Source of the DNA: an uncultured delta proteobacterium
Lineage (GTDB): Bacteria; Desulfobacterota; Desulfobaccia; Desulfobaccales; 0-14-0-80-60-11
Assembly (NCBI GenBank): GCA_963812015.1
Contig: CAWETI010000003.1
Span: 192,001 to 256,000, forward strand
DNA: 64,000 nt
Direction of reading: 5' to 3'
In this document: positions 43,201 through 53,473 of the stretch, in pieces
How positions within the stretch are numbered: position 1 is the stretch's first letter
Layout: every line of letters starts with the position of its first letter
Made by a program: the position numbers and the translations under genes
Notes under the pieces: model-generated
Database searches by the model: none
Told to the model about the DNA's origin: nothing
What the model saw: only the letters and a program-made list of their open reading frames with translations

Positions 43201-43575
43201 ATGAAATGTAAGGGTATAGTCTGCTTCTCAGTGCTGGTGCTCCTCTGCGCCCTGGCCACGGCAGCCCTGGCCGCGGACAAAGGGTTTCTGTGGAATGGGA
43301 CCCACTGGAAAGACATGAGCCCCGAACTCAGGGTGGCCTATGTCAAAGGCATCGGCAACATGGCGGATTTCGAAGTCGCCGCGCCTGGCGCCCCGGCCCC
43401 TTGTATCGCCAAGGGTTTTGTCGATGAACTAAAGACCAAAACCATTGGGCAAGTGATAGCTGAGGTAGATAAATACTATCAAGAAAATCCAGGCAAGATG
43501 GACATGCCGGTGATTGCAGTGATTTTACAGCGCTGTACCAAACTCTGCCCGGCCCCCACTGCGGAGAAGAAATAA
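43201..43575 (+). CDS. Small exported helical protein with conserved Cys (unknown function)
   Basis: Signal peptide; FLWNGTHW..GNMADFE..C..VDKYYQENPGKMDMPVI..RC; paralog follows. Confidence 0.75.
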   Translation: MKCKGIVCFSVLVLLCALATAALAADKGFLWNGTHWKDMSPELRVAYVKGIGNMADFEVAAPGAPAPCIAKGFVDELKTKTIGQVIAEVDKYYQENPGKMDMPVIAVILQRCTKLCPAPTAEKK

Positions 43576-43964
43576 TGAGAGCCGCGGTTATCTTGATAAT
43601 GGTAGGCCTCATGGTCGGCGGCCTGGCCGGGGCGGCTCCGGCGGTGGAGACCGGTAAGGCCTTTCTCTGGGACGGGGTGCACTGGAAGCAGGTTTCCGAG
43701 GATGGCAAGGTCGGATATATCTTCGGCATGGGGAACCTGGCCGATTTCGAAGCCGGGGCATCCAAGGGCAGAAAGCCGGTCTGTCTTTCCCAGGCCTTCG
43801 TGGATGATTTAAAGACCAGAACCGTGATGCAGATCGTCCAGGCAGTGGATCAGTTCTACCAGGAGAATCCCGGCAAGTTGGACATGCCGGTGATCGAGGT
43901 GGTCCTCAGACGATGCACCAAGGTTTGTCCGCCGGAGACTCCGAAAGCGGGAGGTAAGCAATGA
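43575..43964 (+). CDS. Tandem paralog of 43201-43575
   Basis: FLWDGVHW..GNLADFE..C..VDQFYQENPGKLDMPVI..RC; TAATG coupling with the previous gene. Confidence 0.75.
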   Translation: MRAAVILIMVGLMVGGLAGAAPAVETGKAFLWDGVHWKQVSEDGKVGYIFGMGNLADFEAGASKGRKPVCLSQAFVDDLKTRTVMQIVQAVDQFYQENPGKLDMPVIEVVLRRCTKVCPPETPKAGGKQ

Positions 43965-44194
43965 AACAGGCAGCTGTCTTGGTCATGGTTGCGGCGCTTT
44001 TGATGGGCGGCTGTTCCGGCTTCTCCAATACCACGCAGCGGACGGTGAGCGGCGCGGCCGTCGGCGCCGGCGGCGGGGCCCTCATCGGCTGGGCTGCGGG
44101 CTGTCCGGCCTGCGGCGCGGCCATCGGCGCGGGGGCCGGGGCTGCGGGGGGGTTTATTTACGACCAGTATGAAAAATCCCAGGGCCGGCCGTAA
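43961..44194 (+). CDS. Glycine-zipper lipoprotein
   Basis: Lipobox MGGC, GAAVGAGGGALIG..GAAIGAGAG. Confidence 0.8.
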   Translation: MKQAAVLVMVAALLMGGCSGFSNTTQRTVSGAAVGAGGGALIGWAAGCPACGAAIGAGAGAAGGFIYDQYEKSQGRP

Positions 44195-44391
44195 AGCCGC
44201 CCCCTCATTTTCCTTGTAACGGCATGGTGAACCGGTTATTCACCCCGATCTTTACCTTCTCCTCCCTCAGGTATACGGGTCCCTGTCCTTCCGGACCCCC
44301 GGGTCCAGGATCCTGGCAACTACAGTCGATTATGGGTAAAACCTGATGGTAGCCTGTGCTTGGGCATAGTAACAACCAAGGAGAGGATGCG

Positions 44392-44667
44392 ATGAAAAAG
44401 GTGGTCATCTTGTTGGTGGTAGTAACCCTGGTTTTTGGAGGGTGCTCCAGCATGTCCACTACGCAACAACGGGTGTTGAGCGGCGGCGCCATCGGCGCCA
44501 GCAGCGGCGCCCTCATCGGCTGGGCCGTGGGTTCGCCGGCGGCCGGCGCGGCCATTGGCGGCGGCGCGGGCCTCCTGGGCGGGTTTCTCTATGACCAGTA
44601 CGAGAAATATCGCGGTCGCACTAATCCCGCAAGCTCCCCGGTCTCCCCGCCGGCCGGGGCAGACTGA
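44392..44667 (+). CDS. Glycine-zipper lipoprotein, paralog
   Basis: RBS AGGAGAGG, lipobox FGGC, shared TTQ.R..SG.A.GA..GALIGWA and YDQYEK. Confidence 0.8.
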   Translation: MKKVVILLVVVTLVFGGCSSMSTTQQRVLSGGAIGASSGALIGWAVGSPAAGAAIGGGAGLLGGFLYDQYEKYRGRTNPASSPVSPPAGAD

Positions 44668-44884: not shown

Positions 44885-45079
44885 ATGAAAATGGCATTGA
44901 TTCTGCTGATGCTGGCGGCCTTGATCGTGGGAGCCTGCGCTGATACGAGCAGCTCCCAGTACCGGAGCCGCAATTCGGTCATCGATCTGGCCAATACCTG
45001 CGCCACCTGCGGCGCCTCCGTCAGGGACGATTATTTTGCCGGCAGCGCCTATAGAGCCGTGGGCCCCGGCAACTATTGA
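44885..45079 (+). CDS. Small lipoprotein with CxxC
   Basis: RBS AGGAAGGA, lipobox VGAC, CATCG. Confidence 0.6.
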   Translation: MKMALILLMLAALIVGACADTSSSQYRSRNSVIDLANTCATCGASVRDDYFAGSAYRAVGPGNY

Positions 45080-45189
45080 TCGAGGGACCGGCCAGGGCCT
45101 CGGGGATTTTCCACCCCCGGCCGCGACGCGCCTCGTCCCCCTCTACCGCCGGGCGCCAGACCTTGCTTCCTCACCGAGTAAGACTGACT

Positions 45190-45513
45190 TTATTGGCCGA
45201 ATAGGCGCTTCCAGACCCCCCTGGTTTCCGGCTGCGGCGCGGGCAGCCCCAGGTGCTGCCGGATCACCGCCTCCAGTTTATCTTCAGCCACATCGCCGCC
45301 TTCCACCACGATCTCTTCCCCCACCATCACCGCGGGAGCCGTCGGCAGGTCCATTTCGAAATATTCGTCCGTCTGGTACTCGGCGATGGGTTTGGAAGTG
45401 GTCTCGATCTCAACCTCAAACTTTTGGCCCAACCTGGGCATCATTTTTTGAAAGTGCTTTCATGGCTTGCCGTTAGGTTCGTTCATGAAAAACCTGACTT
45501 TTAGCAATGTCAT
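45190..45513 (-). CDS. tsoC: NEPxGxxU-motif selenoprotein, thioredoxin-like fold (Sec18, TGA 45460-45462), 107 aa
   Basis: RBS AAGGAGG before ATG 45513; MTLLKVRFFMNEPNGKP-TGA-KHFQK continues in frame into ORF 45190-45444; hairpin GCCCA-GGT-TGGGC 20 nt after TGA. Symbol is from my recollection of NCBI family names. Confidence 0.85.
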
Positions 45514-45527
45514 CCTCCTTTGCAGAG

Positions 45528-47276
45528 TTATTTCTTCGCCACTGCGGCCATGCGGGGCAGCATCAGCGAAGGGGGCAGATAATCCACCAGCCGCAAATTC
45601 TGGCACTCGTTGCCCTGGCCGTCCAGAAAGATCACCGTGGGCACGCCTTTGATGGCGTACTGGCTGAGCAATCGCTGATGCACCGGATTGCCTTTCTGGG
45701 TGAGGTCCACTTTGAGCATGACAAAATTCTGCTCCGCCAGTTTCACCACGTCGGGATGATGAAAAGTAATCTCGTCCAGCTCTCGGCAAGGGGTGCACCA
45801 GGTGGCGTAAAAATCGATGATTACCGGCTGGTGCGCGGCTTTGGCTTGGGCCAGCACTTGATCCGAGTACGGCTGCCAGGTGACGCCAGGGCCCCGCAAG
45901 GCCCAGGAGCCCACCAGGAAGGTGGCGAAAATCACCCCCGCCAGGGCCACGGCGGTCTTGAGCCACGGGAAACTCCGGAAAGTGGCCGTGGAGCGGTCCA
46001 GCCAACCCAGGTTTATGGCCGCCGCCAGGGCCACCCCGGCCAGGAGCGCCTGGCTTGCGGTTTCGGGCAGCAGGGGCCGGACAAAATACGCGGCCATGGC
46101 CAGGAGCACCCAGCCCATGAGTTTGCGCACCCAGAGCATCCATTCTCCCGACCGGGGCAGTCTCTCCAGGCTGCCGGAAAAGAGGGCCAGGATAAAGAGG
46201 GGCAACCCCAACCCCAGGCTCAGGGTGAAGAAGACCAGAAAACCCAGCCAGGGCGATCCCATGGAAGCCACCCAGGTTAAGAGTCCCAGCACGAACGGCC
46301 CGATACAAGGCGCCGCCACTACTCCCAGAGTCAGGCCCATAAACAGGCTGCCGAAGTAGCCGGCGTAGGATTTGGACGCCGCTTGCGTCAGGCTGCCGGG
46401 CAGGCGCAGTTCCCAAAAGCCGAACAGGCTGGTGGCAAAGAAGACCAGGATGGCGGCCACCGCCACCAGCACCAGGGGATTTTGCAGCAAGGACCCCATG
46501 AGCCCGCCGGTCAAAGCCGCCACCACCCCCAGGGCGGAGTTGGTGACGGCCAGGCCCCCCAGGTACAGGAGGCCATGGACCAGCAAGCGGCCCCGCCCCT
46601 GGCCGCTTTTGCCGCCAAAGTAAGAAACGGTGATGGGGATGATGGGATAGACGCAGGGGGTCAGGTTAAGGGCCATGCCGCCCATGAAGATGCCCAGCAT
46701 GGTCCAGACCATGGCCCAACCGGAAAGCAGGCCGGGGGCATAGGCCTCCGGCGCGTAATCGCACAACCCCAGGGGATCGCTGGCCACCGGCAGCCTCCGG
46801 CTCTGCCATTCCGGAAACCCCAGGGGATCGCGGTACACGTTTTTGTAACCCAGCTTGACGGCCACCCGGGCCGCCGAGTCGCTCCGGACTCAGGCCAGGC
46901 CTGCTCAGTAAAACACCACCAGCCGGTCTTTATCCGGCCCCAATAAGGCCGCCAGGCCACCTTGAGACCGCCACCGCGACCACCAGGTGGGCTCCATGGG
47001 GAAATTGATCGCCCCCTGGATATGGCCGCTGCGATACTCCCAATCCTGGCGGGTGTCCACCAAAAACAGCTTTTGGGAGTCCTGCCGGTAACGCTCGGCC
47101 AGTTCAGCGGTGTTGATCAGGCGGTAGCCGCCGCTCCTGGCTTCGGCCAGCACGTCTTCCCCGCTGGCCTCTTGGGGGATTATCGGACGGTTGACATGCC
47201 AGAGCACCCCCAGGGTAAGGGCAATGGCCACCAGGGCCAGGAGCGTGGTCCTGCGGTTTTTCATAACCAACCTCAT
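45528..47276 (-). CDS. tsoB: Rhodanese-DsbD(TM)-thioredoxin fusion selenoprotein with two Sec (TGA 46905-46907 and 46890-46892), 582 aa
   Basis: ORFs 46905-47276 and 45528-46865 are in the same frame, joined by VVFY-TGA-AGLA-TGA-VRSDSAARV, matching rhodanese FYCxGxxCxRS; LTPCVYP and AAPCIGP DsbD cysteines; WCTPC. Start may be 47264. Confidence 0.88.
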
Positions 47277-47281
47277 GGCGC

Positions 47282-47734
47282 TTAAGACAACTTTCCTGCC
47301 CTTTGCAACTTCGAGATGAGGAAGGTTGCGCCTCTTTGGGACAGGCCGAGCTGCGCGGCCAAGTCTTGAGGAGTGAGGGCCCCTTGCCTTTGGGCCAGAG
47401 AGATTACCTCCTCCTCCAATTCATCCAGCCAGTCCTCGAAAAGGACCAGCAAGTCCGGGTCGGCGACGGCCATCAGTTGCCGGGATTGAGCCACCCGGTC
47501 CACCAGTTTCTGACACATATGCGTTGGATCGACACCTTCGTCCATGCATTCCGCCAGTCAGAGGTGCACCATGCTGGATACCTTATCGTCGCCGGCGCCG
47601 CCGATGAGATTGACGACGAAAATCAACCGATCTTCATCGGTAACCAAGGGTAGGATGGTTTTCAGCGTTGCGGCGATTTCGGCCATAGCTTGCGCCGGGG
47701 CCATGCTCTTCAGTATTTCTTGAATTCCGGCCAT
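47282..47734 (-). CDS. tsoA: LULAxC-motif selenoprotein with C-terminal HTH-like region (Sec59, TGA 47558-47560), 150 aa
   Basis: RBS GGAGGT before ATG 47734; MAGIQEILK...SMVHL-TGA-LAEC continues in frame into ORF 47282-47545; downstream hairpin with GAAGGT loop. Confidence 0.85.
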
Positions 47735-47756
47735 GGTGATGAATCACCTCCCCAGG

Positions 47757-48092
47757 CTAAAAAGTTTTCCTCTCGGCCAGCAAATCCGTGGCCAGATCTT
47801 TCAACGCCGCTAAAATCTCCAAGATGCGGCCGTCGGCGATTTCGTAATATACAAAGGGGCCGCTCCGCTCCACCTTGACCAGGAGGGCCCGCCGCAATTC
47901 CTTCAGGTGGTGGGAGACCAGGGGCTGCGACAGATTCAGTGCTTCGACGATCGCCGAGACGGATTTCCTGCCATGATTGACGCACAGCAGAATCCTGAGG
48001 CGGTTTTCATCTGACAAACTCTTGGCCACAAAGGCGACCGTCTGGAGGTATTCCTCCAACGGCATCAGTGGCTCACGACCCGGTGGTGCCAA
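47757..48092 (-). CDS. ArsR/SmtB family transcriptional regulator
   Basis: KSLSDENRLRIL, LSQPLVSHHLKEL, VYY; RBS GGAGG before TTG start. Confidence 0.92.
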   Translation of the reverse strand: MAPPGREPLMPLEEYLQTVAFVAKSLSDENRLRILLCVNHGRKSVSAIVEALNLSQPLVSHHLKELRRALLVKVERSGPFVYYEIADGRILEILAALKDLATDLLAERKTF

Positions 48093-48133
48093 GGTGACCT
48101 CCCCATCTCCAGGAGCTCGGCTGGGATAATCAT

Positions 48134-48172
48134 ATAAATAGATATTTATCTGTTTATCTACTTGGCTGTCAA
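48134..48172 (-). promoter_or_regulatory. Putative ArsR operator (11-2-11 inverted repeat) next to a TTGACA -35 box
   Basis: ATAAATAGATA-TT-TATCTGTTTAT (48134-48157, one mismatch); TTGACA on minus strand at 48172-48167. Confidence 0.65.
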
Positions 48173-48229
48173 GGGAAAAATGCAGGAACTTTGTTTCGGG
48201 CAGGTCGTTAAGAATGGCGAAAAGCGGTT

Positions 48230-48360
48230 AGAGCGTTTGCTAAAATTCCTTCTGATTGCTGGTTTTTTAAATCCCCCTAAATCCCCCTTTTCCAAAGGGG
48301 GACTTTTAAAGGAATTTCGCTAAGTTCCCCCCTTTGGAAAAGGGAGGGTAGGGGGGATTT
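48230..48360 (-). repeat. Dispersed ~130-bp palindromic element, copy 2
   Basis: Reverse-complement homolog of 16810-16940; followed by a degenerate GTAG-REP remnant ending CCCCTAC at about 48408. Confidence 0.75.
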
Positions 48361-48429
48361 GGGCTGTCCGCCCTCGCTTCGGGACGCACACCCAGGTGAA
48401 CCCCCTACATATCAAGGATTTTCTTACTT

Positions 48430-51362: not shown

Positions 51363-52643
51363 TTAGTCCCCGCCCCGGTCCCGGTCCAGGTTGAACAGCC
51401 GCCGCACCAGGTCCAGTTCCTGGTGGGGGTTCTTGGGACGGCGGTTGCGCTTCAGGAAGATGATGGGGTCGTGGAGGAGTTTCTGGGTGATGGAGCCGGT
51501 GAGCACCTCCAGGGCCTGGCGCTGCTCCGGGGTCAGGGGACCCAACTGGTTCAGGGTCTTTTTCAGCTCCGCCTGGCAGATGGCCTCGGCCTTGTCCTTG
51601 AGGGCGATGATGGTGGGGTAGACCGCCAGGGTTTCCAGCCAGTGGAGGAATTTTAGGGTCTCGGCGGCCACCAGGCGCTCGGCTTTGGTGGCTTCGTGCC
51701 GCCGACGGTCCAGGTTGAGTTCCACCACCTCTTTCAGATCGTCGATGTTGTAGAGGTAGACGTTGTCCAGGTCGTTGATGCCGGGGTCCAGGTCCCGGGG
51801 CACCGCGATGTCGATGAGAAAGAGGGGCCGCTGCTTGCGCCGCCGCATCACCCCTTTGACCTGGTCCCGGGTGATGAGGACGTTGCCGGCGCCGGTGGAG
51901 CTGATGAGGATGTCGGCGGTGAGCAACTGGTCCGGCAATTCTTCCAGGGAGACCGCCTCCCCGCCGAAGCGCCTGGCCAGGTTGACGCCCCGCTCCAGGG
52001 TGCGGTTGGCCACGGTGATCTTGCCGGCGCCCTGGCCTTTGAGGTGCTCCAGGGCCAACTCCGCCATCTCCCCGGCCCCCATGAGCAGGACGTTTTTGCC
52101 GGCGAGGTCCCCGAAGATCTTTTTGGCCATGGTGACCGCGGCATAGCTGACACTCACGGCATGGTCGCCGATGCCGGTCTCGCCCCGGACCCGTTTGGCC
52201 ACGGAAAAAGCCTTGTGAACCAGGCGGTTGAGTATGGGGCCGGTGGCGTGGTGCTCCGTGGCCTCCCGGTAGGCCTGTTTCACCTGGCCGAGGATTTGGG
52301 GCTCCCCCACCACCAGGGAATCCAGGCTGGCCGCCACCCGGAAGAAGTGCTGCACCGCCTCCTGATCCCGGTGGATATAAAAGGACTCGTCCAGGTCACC
52401 CGGGGCGATCTCCGGGTGGCGGGCAAAGAATTCCCGGCTCCGCTCCGCGACGTCGTCCGGCGCCTCGGTGACGCACATCAACTCCACCCGGTTGCAGGTG
52501 ATGTACAACAGGCTCTCGGAGATCTCGGGCCAATGCTTCAGGCGGTCGTAGGCGTCCCCCACGTCCGGGATGAGGCAGGCCAGCTTTTCCCTGAGGGCCA
52601 CTGGCGCGGTTTTGTGGTTGACGCCGCAGAGGAGGAGGTTCAT
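51363..52643 (-). CDS. hemA: Glutamyl-tRNA reductase
   Basis: GVNHKTAPV, TCNRVE, SLDSLVVGEPQILGQ, GAGEM, DIAVPRD. Confidence 0.97.
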   Translation of the reverse strand: MNLLLCGVNHKTAPVALREKLACLIPDVGDAYDRLKHWPEISESLLYITCNRVELMCVTEAPDDVAERSREFFARHPEIAPGDLDESFYIHRDQEAVQHFFRVAASLDSLVVGEPQILGQVKQAYREATEHHATGPILNRLVHKAFSVAKRVRGETGIGDHAVSVSYAAVTMAKKIFGDLAGKNVLLMGAGEMAELALEHLKGQGAGKITVANRTLERGVNLARRFGGEAVSLEELPDQLLTADILISSTGAGNVLITRDQVKGVMRRRKQRPLFLIDIAVPRDLDPGINDLDNVYLYNIDDLKEVVELNLDRRRHEATKAERLVAAETLKFLHWLETLAVYPTIIALKDKAEAICQAELKKTLNQLGPLTPEQRQALEVLTGSITQKLLHDPIIFLKRNRRPKNPHQELDLVRRLFNLDRDRGGD

Positions 52644-53473
52644 GGCTTTTGCAGGAACTTGGCGAAACTGTGGTAGCCCGTGAGCCACAGGTTGGCGCCC
52701 ACAAAGGTGCACACCAGCACCAGGAAGCCGCCGATGGCCATCAGCGCCGCCCGCCGGCCCCGCCAGCCCACCGTCAGACGCTCGTGGAGGAGCACGGCGT
52801 AGATGAGCCAGGCGATGAGGGTCAGGACCTCCTTGGGGTCCCAACTCCAGAAGCGCCCCAGGGTGTGCTGGGCATAGAGGGACCCGGAAATGATCCCGGC
52901 GGTGAGCAAGGGGAAGCCGAAGGTCAGGCACCAGGAGTTGAGGGTGTCCAGTTGAGACAATGACGGCAGCCGCCGATAAAAAAAGCCGAACTGCTTGCCC
53001 TTGATCTGCCGCTCCTGGATCAGGTAGAGGATGCCTCCCAGGCAGGCCAGGGCCAGGGCGGCATAGCCCGCCAGGGTCAGGCAGATGTGCACGGTGAGCC
53101 AGAAACCCTGCAGCAGGGGCGAGACGGCCCCTTGGGGCTGGGGCAGGATGAGGGCGCCGGACACCATCAGGGCCGCCAGGGGCGCCACCAGGGCGCCCAG
53201 GACCTTGATGGGGTAGCGCCAGATCAGGAGCAGAAAGGCCGCCACCAGGGCCCAGGCGAACAACAGCAGGGTGGCCCCGAAGCTGGCCGCGGGAAGGGAC
53301 CCTGAGATCCAAATCCGCTGGATAAGGGCCAGGGTGTGGCACGCCAGGCCCCCGGCCATGACCCAGGCGCCGGCGCGATAGTAGCCCTCCCACTGGGCCA
53401 GGAAGTATAACAGCCAGAGGCCGGTGGCGGCGAAATAGGCGGCCAGGGCGAGATAGAGGAAAAGGTTATTCAT
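52640..53473 (-). CDS. Cytochrome c assembly (CcsA/HemX-like) membrane protein
   Basis: Multiple TM helices, FWSWDPKE WWD-type motif, conserved His; in operon with hemA. Confidence 0.88.
   Translation of the reverse strand: MNNLFLYLALAAYFAATGLWLLYFLAQWEGYYRAGAWVMAGGLACHTLALIQRIWISGSLPAASFGATLLLFAWALVAAFLLLIWRYPIKVLGALVAPLAALMVSGALILPQPQGAVSPLLQGFWLTVHICLTLAGYAALALACLGGILYLIQERQIKGKQFGFFYRRLPSLSQLDTLNSWCLTFGFPLLTAGIISGSLYAQHTLGRFWSWDPKEVLTLIAWLIYAVLLHERLTVGWRGRRAALMAIGGFLVLVCTFVGANLWLTGYHSFAKFLQKP

Follow-up and report, generated by a model that had tools for sequence, protein, structure and literature searches.

The tsoRABC operon of an uncultured delta proteobacterium, an orthologue of a published three-selenoprotein system, and a proposal for its function

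In this study, we analyzed a stretch of 64,000 nucleotides (nt) from an uncultured delta proteobacterium of the Desulfobaccales (assembly GCA_963812015.1, contig CAWETI010000003.1, positions 192,001 to 256,000 of the forward strand), hereafter called the window. It carries four minus-strand genes at 45190-48092 in the order tsoR-tsoA-tsoB-tsoC, with one in-frame TGA codon in tsoA, two in tsoB, and one in tsoC. This locus is almost certainly a genuine operon of an ArsR-family regulator gene and three selenoprotein genes with four UGA codons for selenocysteine (Sec, U), since the products pass their NCBIfam cut-offs, the TGA codons are kept in relatives, the adjoining hairpins covary, and the genome holds the Sec machinery. 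The Tso system is already known, and its gene families are named and published: a passage of the review PMC13188914 introduces 'Tso (three selenoprotein operon)', citing Haft & Tolstoy 2025, calls the functions unknown, and lists TsoA (LULAxC), TsoB (UxxxxU, two Sec), TsoC, TsoX, and TsoY. Beyond this review and one database paper citing it, no literature on Tso was found; Haft & Tolstoy 2025 itself lay outside the comparison. An initial annotation made from the DNA letters had assigned the motifs to the NCBI families TsoA, TsoB, and TsoC and knew of no established function; the families were recovered above their curated cut-offs, and the passage of the review agrees on the function. From the evidence below, we infer a metalloid- or chalcogen-responsive Sec relay in which TsoA would be the sensor partner of TsoR. 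As a whole, with identity, relay, sensor pair, and metalloid substrate taken together, this explanation stands about an even chance.

The genes and their Sec codons are the following:

47757-48092, minus strand: tsoR, ArsR/SmtB-family regulator of 111 amino acids (aa) starting from the TTG at 48092 (NCBIfam NF045707, 165.9 against a cut-off of 115 bits; Pfam HTH_5)
47282-47734, minus strand: tsoA, selenoprotein of 150 aa with Sec59-x3-Cys63-x10-Cys74 followed by a C-terminal helix-turn-helix (HTH) (NF045695, 224.2 against 170 bits)
45528-47276, minus strand: tsoB, 582 aa with N-terminal membrane anchor, rhodanese domain, DsbD core of eight transmembrane helices, and thioredoxin domain (NF045694, 1010.3 against 805 bits)
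45190-45507, minus strand: tsoC, selenoprotein of about 105 aa with a predicted minimal thioredoxin fold, NEPNGKP-U, and a basic amphipathic C-terminal tail (NF045708, 151.1 against 45 bits)
47558-47560, minus strand: Sec codon (TGA) of tsoA, U59, in HL-U-LAEC
46905-46907, minus strand: first Sec codon of tsoB, U124, in FY-U-AGLA-U-VRS
46890-46892, minus strand: second Sec codon of tsoB, U129
45460-45462, minus strand: Sec codon of tsoC, U16 counted from the TTG start, in NEPNGKP-U

The initial annotation had read three consecutive minus-strand genes as broken only by TGA, and all four codons were indeed found where it had placed them. Its further reading of an ArsR regulator ahead of a tightly spaced operon with good ribosome-binding sites also held: the regulator gene passes the TsoR model, the intergenic gaps amount to 22 nt (tsoR/tsoA), 5 nt (tsoA/tsoB), and 20 nt (tsoB/tsoC), and AGGAGG-like sites lie 5′ of tsoA and tsoC. 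The matches extend over nearly the whole models (positions 1-143 of 144 for TsoA and 2-571 of 572 for TsoB). A chance arrangement of this kind is very improbable. Judged from orthologues, the start of tsoC is most likely the TTG at 45507 (MLKVRFF...) rather than the ATG at 45513, and tsoB probably starts at its second ATG (47264), by which its Sec residues would become 120 and 125.

For the conservation of the Sec codons, 401 genomes sampled from the phylum were searched with a TsoB profile, and the cut-off was passed in 26 genomes with 30 full-length matches. Each of these 30 has exactly two TGA codons; weaker matches in the 401 genomes comprise the DsbD and thioredoxin part alone, without the TGA pair. 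At the 26 loci, U is present in all 22 TsoA proteins found, UU in all 26 TsoB proteins, and U in 21 of 22 TsoC proteins, the exception (L015) being frameshifted. A second sample consisted of 80 further loci found with a TsoA alignment among 395 tblastn-positive stretches (one genome per species) that encode a TsoA relative and whose record titles name sulfate-reducing and syntrophic lineages, with cultured strains of the Desulfobulbaceae and Desulfobacterales among them. Here, the motif matches gave U in TsoA (78/78), UU in TsoB (56/56), and U in TsoC (64/64), and Cys occurred at none of the Sec sites in the 80 loci, although the search patterns permitted it. Many families of the phylum thus keep the TGA codons, and the coding sequence to either side is conserved as well. 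The checks named by the initial annotation came out in its favor, as relatives keep the TGA codons with proteins continuing past them, and selA (608.5 bits), selB (368.5 bits), selD (372.7 bits), and a tRNA-Sec gene (on contig 4) are present in the genome. The genome's own selD (contig 2, 1058596-1059513, locus L010) has one in-frame TGA, by which its selenophosphate synthetase is predicted to be a selenoprotein itself.

Public records of these proteins are affected by the same codons. Database entries for TsoA and TsoC are mostly halves cut at the TGA, with one full-length TsoA (P0124) bearing Trp at the Sec site. Among 19 full-length TsoC-like proteins of a public protein collection, the Sec site is W in 14, R in one, and C in four, where C may be U rewritten by a tool. 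Some gene callers evidently read the tso TGA codons under another code. Three RNA libraries and a DNA run yielded contigs of relatives that match 27-30 of 30 bins at 90-99% likeness, those of the RNA libraries spanning most of the operon, and a Sec codon was bridged by one contig record only (31-letter rule); since the contigs are those of relatives and an RNA library can hold DNA, they prove neither transcription nor the TGA letters.

As the initial annotation had claimed, a hairpin with a G-containing loop lies 3′ of each TGA, at a distance of 18-25 nt. Folding energies were no better than those of shuffled sequences (z -1.65, -0.01, and -0.59) and are therefore not counted as evidence; the support comes from conservation and covariation. 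The hairpins resembling Sec insertion sequence (SECIS) elements are:

47525-47544, minus strand: tsoA hairpin, loop AGGUG, one bulged A, 98% of cells paired
46876-46891, minus strand: first tsoB hairpin, loop CGNAGY, about 18 nt past the first TGA, five pairs, 98.5% of cells paired
46858-46874, minus strand: second tsoB hairpin, loop CGGGU, about 21 nt past the second TGA, six pairs, 100% paired
45426-45440, minus strand: tsoC hairpin GCCCA-GGU-UGGGC, loop about 25 nt past the TGA, conserved in 21 sequences

In the tsoA hairpin, 12 distinct sequences have A-U at pair 23/36 and 9 have G-C; the covariation score of the hairpin was reached by none of 500 shuffles, and sliding the partners by 1-3 columns leaves no more than 43% of cells paired. 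The first tsoB hairpin is nearly invariant and hence without covariation, and the G and A of the second Sec codon sit within its stem. The second tsoB hairpin covaries at pair 39/51 (GC 19, AU 5, CG 2) and pair 42/48 (CG 25, UA 1). Taken together, the tandem tsoB hairpins pair in 99.3% of cells; none of 500 shuffles did as well, and slid versions reach at most 63%. No compensatory changes were found in the tsoC hairpin among the 21 sequences, and no SECIS family was matched in an Rfam search of 45000-48400 (E-value mode).

The largest protein, TsoB, combines three domains:

46800-47105, minus strand: rhodanese domain, residues 58-159 (Pfam PF00581, 54 against 22.2 bits)
46071-46706, minus strand: DsbD-type transmembrane core, residues 191-402, with Cys208 and Cys324 (Pfam PF02683, 143.2 bits)
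45621-45881, minus strand: C-terminal thioredoxin domain with WCTPC, Cys494-x-x-Cys497 (Pfam Thioredoxin_7 and Thioredoxin)

The initial annotation had recognized the DsbD, thioredoxin, and rhodanese domains correctly; that the membrane conduit and the Sec-rhodanese are one polypeptide, TsoB, was left unclear there. Among 25 sequences, U124, U129, R131, S132, D133, C208, C324, C494, and C497 are invariant, and C172 and C558 vary. Hydropathy places an N-terminal anchor at residues 10-28 after a K/R-rich start, and the later segments together with the Cys208 helix fit the eight-helix DsbD core. Because an N-terminal anchor is followed by an even number of membrane helices, the rhodanese and thioredoxin domains are both predicted to lie outside the cytoplasm. 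U124 aligns with the catalytic Cys of the solved rhodaneses 6mxv, 3d1p, and 2hhg; the three alignments share a two-residue gap within the loop, and the corresponding insertion in TsoB holds Sec129. By its predicted function, TsoB is a DsbD-type conduit with a Sec-pair rhodanese as end domain and not DsbD proper. A DsbD-like relay through TsoB is rather probable, because of its domains, the invariant Sec and Cys residues, the topology, U124 at the catalytic position, and TrxB-like neighbors in relatives.

For TsoC, no Pfam domain was matched, and its profile found no sequence match among solved chains. An AlphaFold2 model from 21 sequences (predicted local distance difference test, pLDDT, 80.6) has the order strand-helix-strand ... 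strand-strand-helix followed by a short C-terminal helix, with U16, the sole invariant redox residue, at the start of helix 1. In re-alignments of this model, thioredoxins led (Z 9.7-8.3), with SelW-like or 'putative Se-binding' chains (Z 8.5-8.9) on a par. On the model, TsoC has the thioredoxin fold in its minimal form, and G-K-P-U stands in place of CxxC/CxxU. The basic tail is found in nearly all TsoC proteins encoded beside TsoB and is absent in three of five, a small number, encoded without it. An additional TsoC-like gene, whose motif reads N(D/E)PCG(L/M)TU (CxxxU, also a TGA) and whose product is without the basic tail, lies between tsoB and tsoC in 14 of the 80 loci (examples are L026:1138-1461, L018:1184-1495, L065, L067-L069, L071, L074, L076, L078-L080, and L086-L088); it is absent from the window.

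TsoA, a Sec gene undescribed as a protein in the initial annotation beyond its correct TGA, was found here to encode a helical protein with a C-terminal HTH. Pfam matched HTH_24 in the last 45 residues (25.2 against 21.9 bits), and none of U59, C63, and C74 varies among 21 sequences. The AlphaFold2 model is all-helical (pLDDT 73), and its C-terminal 42-48 residues superpose on the HTH domains of AsnC, ArsR, and MarR at about 1.2 Å. A TsoA profile search of 1.84 billion protein representatives returned the halves 1-58 and 64-149, one full-length protein with W at the Sec site, and a set of non-Sec relatives. The latter have Met-rich N-termini, a conserved G-x-x-P-x-E-M-C aligned with TsoA C74, the same HTH, and a longer C-terminus; a match of these relatives to any named family was not reached.

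The pairing of this protein with TsoR is strict. In all 80 loci of the second sample, tsoR lies directly upstream of tsoA; TsoB is also encoded in 63, is missing in 12 with at least 3 kb of downstream sequence, and could not be judged in 5 that are too short. An ArsR-like gene also lies just upstream of the non-Sec TsoA relative in three of three loci of the phylum sample. Of 65 metagenome loci that extend far enough upstream, 57 have such a gene ahead of the TsoA-like one, in the same orientation and at most 700 nt away; the TsoR of the window is 36% identical to one such regulator (E 1e-19). In TsoR itself, the invariant columns are HTH residues only: among 19 orthologues there is no invariant Cys, nor any invariant Cys or His outside the HTH, and the single Cys37 is replaced by S, F, A, or H. 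Between the ArsR-like and the non-Sec TsoA-like genes, a single-helix membrane protein of 71-72 aa with two Cys is encoded at L174:6887-7102 and L176:6530-6748, and a Cys-rich DUF3795 gene follows in both loci. Genome G051, from the genus of the window, has two complete tsoB loci along with four TsoA-type matches (contigs C11 and C29); the Tso system can be duplicated within one genome.

Upstream of tsoR, a candidate operator and promoter were identified:

48133-48150, minus strand: candidate TsoR operator GATAAAT-ATCT-ATTTATA (consensus TATAAAT-N4-ATTTATA), the sole match in the window
48167-48172, minus strand: -35-like TTGACA of the tsoR promoter, read from the sequence; it precedes the palindrome in many relatives too

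The left arm of the palindrome overlaps a -10-like ATAAAT (48144-48149). With at most two mismatches, the motif occurs within -260 to +20 of tsoR in 51 of 79 loci of relatives, compared with 15 matches in 803,350 nt elsewhere. At L065, L069, L075, L079, L081, L082, L085, and L098, a gene for a TrxB-like reductase abuts tsoR and the motif is absent; the operon seems to be extended upstream in these relatives. The invariable adjacency of tsoR and tsoA, the HTH_24 match above its cut-off, the ArsR pairing of the non-Sec relatives, and the enrichment of the operator point to TsoA and TsoR as a sensor pair, which we regard as possible at somewhat less than an even chance. A wider version of this claim is more tentative: TsoA would be a Sec-containing sensor or co-regulator of a TsoR without ligand site of its own and would represent, with its Sec, one branch of a larger and so far unnamed group of HTH proteins rich in Met/Cys, and such ArsR/TsoA-like pairs might control selenoprotein genes of metalloid chemistry, namely Tso and the ArsM-like and MduS-like methyltransferases.

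The gene neighborhoods of relatives were inspected for possible cargo; 150 of 193 candidate open reading frames (ORFs) were covered in the scan of 21 loci. TrxB-like reductase genes occur in 19 of the 80 Tso neighborhoods, genes for ArsM-like selenoprotein methyltransferases in 11 (directly after tsoR-tsoA in L123), and other methyltransferases of the Methyltransf_11 type in 10. At loci without TsoB (30 of 98 ORFs scanned, from seven loci), tsoA is followed by TsoC alone, by the ArsM-like methyltransferase of L123, by SelD and a TauE-like permease (L105), by TsoX and TsoY (L126), or by an SQR-like protein (L136). Downstream of the non-Sec TsoA-like genes (83 of 109 ORFs scanned, 45 loci), methyltransferases are encoded in 10 of 45 loci; they break off where a TGA would be expected and correspond to the N-terminal portions of selenoprotein models (ArsM/AhpD, ArsM/DUF2284, UXPK-star, and MduS). 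TsoX and TsoY gave no match in the genome of the window; the control genomes gave none either, so that absence is not established.

From these elements, the following mechanism is proposed. Electrons would pass from the cytoplasm to Cys208 and Cys324 in the eight-helix core of TsoB, on to Cys494 and Cys497 of its periplasmic thioredoxin domain, and from there to the periplasmic rhodanese domain with Sec124 and Sec129. The Sec pair would cycle between a diselenide (or an adduct of Se and substrate) and two selenols and thereby reduce or strip soft chalcogen or metalloid species outside the cytoplasm. In the cytoplasm, TsoC would act as a protein of thioredoxin fold whose single Sec occupies the second Cys position of what was once a CxxC (now G-K-P-U), and its basic amphipathic tail may tether it at the membrane beside TsoB. 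TsoR would bind the palindrome overlapping the -10 box, and TsoA (Sec59, Cys63, Cys74, HTH) would be its ligand-binding partner, supplying a soft-ligand site absent from TsoR. As inducer and substrate class, an arsenic-type metalloid, or else Se or Te, would be the most likely, because ArsM-like genes recur beside Tso and non-Sec TsoA-like genes; a metalloid substrate taken on its own is a doubtful guess, and sulfane sulfur and selenium are serious rivals.

Several observations weigh against this proposal. In the TsoA model, residues 46-90 with U59, C63, and C74 have low confidence (pLDDT 45-52), the HTH fold match is weak (E about 0.24, with no row at E <= 0.001 in the fold search), and the HTH is without the wing that the non-Sec relatives have. 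On TsoB, the DsbD model NF001419 scored below its cut-off (242.5 against 330 bits) and covered residues 189-573 only. TsoC was considered as an ArsD-like protein on the basis of the first Foldseek row (E 8.4e-4, with thioredoxins next), yet ArsD fell outside the top 50 by Z on re-alignment, and this candidate was rejected. The neighbor met most often, which follows tsoC at 11 of 21 and 30 of 80 loci, encodes a VTT/DedA membrane protein of unclear meaning; sulfur-relay genes are also found, with DsrC/TusE-like proteins at 4 of 21 loci, DsrE-like proteins at 5 of 80, TauE at 2, and SQR-like proteins at 2; and no recurrent cargo gene adjoins tsoRABC in the window. Moreover, the genomes of the relatives are kin, and locus counts overstate independence.

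The strongest alternative is a system for reactive sulfur, which we consider unlikely, if deserving attention. Sulfane sulfur from polysulfide, thiosulfate, or persulfides would be loaded by the TsoB rhodanese on Sec124, Sec129 would resolve the adduct and free sulfide, the DsbD path would re-reduce the diselenide, and TsoR/TsoA would answer persulfide stress. This reading is favored by the rhodanese fold with Sec at the catalytic position, the sulfur-relay neighbors named above, the sulfate-reducing lineages in the record titles, and a sub-threshold match of TsoR to the BigR model (42.6 against 155 bits). However, TsoR is devoid of the conserved Cys pair that thiol-based persulfide sensors require, no single sulfur gene is found as cargo as often as the ArsM-like methyltransferases, and the active-site loop of TsoB is two residues longer than in sulfurtransferases.

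Handling or gating of selenium has a low probability. Selenium species would be captured or reduced and Se passed inward, or TsoA would be a switch for Se availability: its HTH lies downstream of U59 and would be made only with working Sec insertion, so that selenoprotein cargo would be turned on only with Se. All cargo classes found are indeed selenoprotein families (TsoB, TsoC, TsoX, and TsoY; ArsM-like and MduS-like methyltransferases), selD follows tsoR-tsoA-tsoC in L105, and the TsoC fold is as near to SelW-like and 'putative Se-binding' proteins as to thioredoxins. Such gating is at odds with the non-Sec TsoA relatives, which likewise pair with ArsR-like genes ahead of selenoprotein genes but have no UGA gate themselves, and selD is adjacent in just one of the 80 loci.

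An alternative that concerns TsoA alone, similarly improbable, is a non-regulatory role as cytoplasmic redox partner that gives electrons to, or takes them from, TsoB or TsoC, in which Sec59 and Cys63 would form a selenenylsulfide and the HTH would serve as a protein-binding module only. The U-x3-C spacing with a third invariant Cys would suit this role, as would the missing wing and the weak fold match to DNA-binding domains. Against it, tsoA is present at 12 loci that have room for TsoB without encoding it, always next to tsoR on its downstream side, and the non-Sec relatives keep their pairing with ArsR-like genes.

A soft-metal relay resembling MerP/MerT is very unlikely. Here, the periplasmic Sec pair would bind Hg(II) or a similar ion and hand it to the membrane Cys pair and then to TsoC/TsoA, in line with Sec/Cys sites on both membrane sides, with Met-rich runs of the TsoA relatives in place of the Sec/Cys stretch, and with heavy-metal-type neighbors (Metal_resist, DGC, DUF3795) beside the non-Sec relatives. 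No mercuric reductase or lyase was found among the annotated neighborhoods, and what DsbD-type cores are known to conduct is electrons rather than metals. Finally, that the TGA codons are real stops in split, decayed, or mis-sequenced genes from which no selenoprotein is made has next to no probability and is already contradicted: the hairpin energies, which taken alone are no better than shuffles, would fit it, but the codons recur at the same four places across many families of the phylum with the protein conserved on both sides, the hairpins covary, and the Sec machinery is complete.

Within the window, tsoRABC is flanked by mnmG and by converging small lipoprotein genes. On the plus strand, two adjacent paralogous genes for small secreted proteins (43201-43575 and 43575-43964), both with ...FLW(N/D)G(T/V)HWK... 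and ...YQENPGK(M/L)DMPVI..., and two glycine-zipper lipoprotein-like genes with weak YiaD-type matches (43961-44194 and 44356-44667) all converge on the end of tsoC. The minus strand also has a long, nearly perfect hairpin of about 20 bp (CCCUUUUCCAAAGGGGGG...CCCCCUUUGGAAAAGGGGG) at 48264-48365, past the mnmG stop (48430) and ahead of the tsoR promoter; it may be a terminator of mnmG or else a short repeat element. The 233-nt spacer folds at -85.8 kcal/mol (z -3.3, equaled by none of 200 shuffles), and in Rfam the region 48210-48365, outside the operon, gave sub-threshold hairpin-type matches only. Farther upstream (51363-53393, minus strand), the longest ORF with hemA (glutamyl-tRNA reductase match at residues 254-670) has about 250 additional N-terminal residues; this extension may merely reflect the first start codon of the open frame.

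The tso locus is a clean example of genes split at TGA by ordinary annotation. Since the system is published, its rediscovery has little news value, and the function of a widespread four-Sec system is the remaining question. It can now be approached from several sides: the candidate operator is defined, TsoA and TsoR form a candidate sensor pair based on Sec, TsoB is predicted to hold a diselenide rhodanese in the periplasm that is fed by a DsbD core, and a link to ArsM-like selenoprotein genes recurs.

Comparison with known systems places each part of the proposed relay. Like ArsR/SmtB metalloregulators, TsoR has an ArsR HTH, passes the general metalloregulator model (76.5 against 55 bits), and has a palindromic candidate operator overlapping its promoter; in contrast to them, it is without a conserved Cys/His ligand set outside the DNA-reading helix, and the Sec/Cys residues reside in another small HTH protein, TsoA, with which it invariably pairs. 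In its modeled minimal thioredoxin fold, with a reactive residue where helix 1 begins, TsoC is similar to SelW-like/Rdx proteins, whereas the first Cys of CxxC/CxxU is replaced by Gly and there is no match at the sequence level. From ArsD it differs by the absence of the three As(III)-binding Cys, and its fold match to ArsD is no better than to thioredoxins. TsoB resembles DsbD/ScsB-type reductases in the DsbD_TM core, the two membrane Cys, and the C-terminal periplasmic thioredoxin CxxC, and the same topology argument applies; its N-terminal substrate-facing domain is a two-Sec rhodanese instead of the domain typical of DsbD. With single-domain rhodaneses and Cdc25/Acr2-type arsenate reductases, whose loop lengths are textbook knowledge, TsoB shares the rhodanese fold and a nucleophile in the canonical place with a conserved Arg-Ser after it. 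Its nucleophile is Sec, however, the loop U-A-G-L-A/T-U-V-R with a second Sec is two residues longer than in the aligned solved rhodaneses, and the domain is predicted to be periplasmic and tethered to its own reductase. SelL is a diselenide selenoprotein with UxxU and a thioredoxin-like fold; in TsoB, two Sec likewise lie close together within a single redox loop, suggestive of a diselenide, though fold (rhodanese) and spacing (UxxxxU) differ. Compared with the published Tso operon, as far as the passage of the review describes it, the locus of the window has the same four families (NF045707, NF045695, NF045694, and NF045708), gene order, and motifs (LULAxC, UxxxxU, and NEPxGxxU); it is an orthologue of that system, with nothing different in kind.

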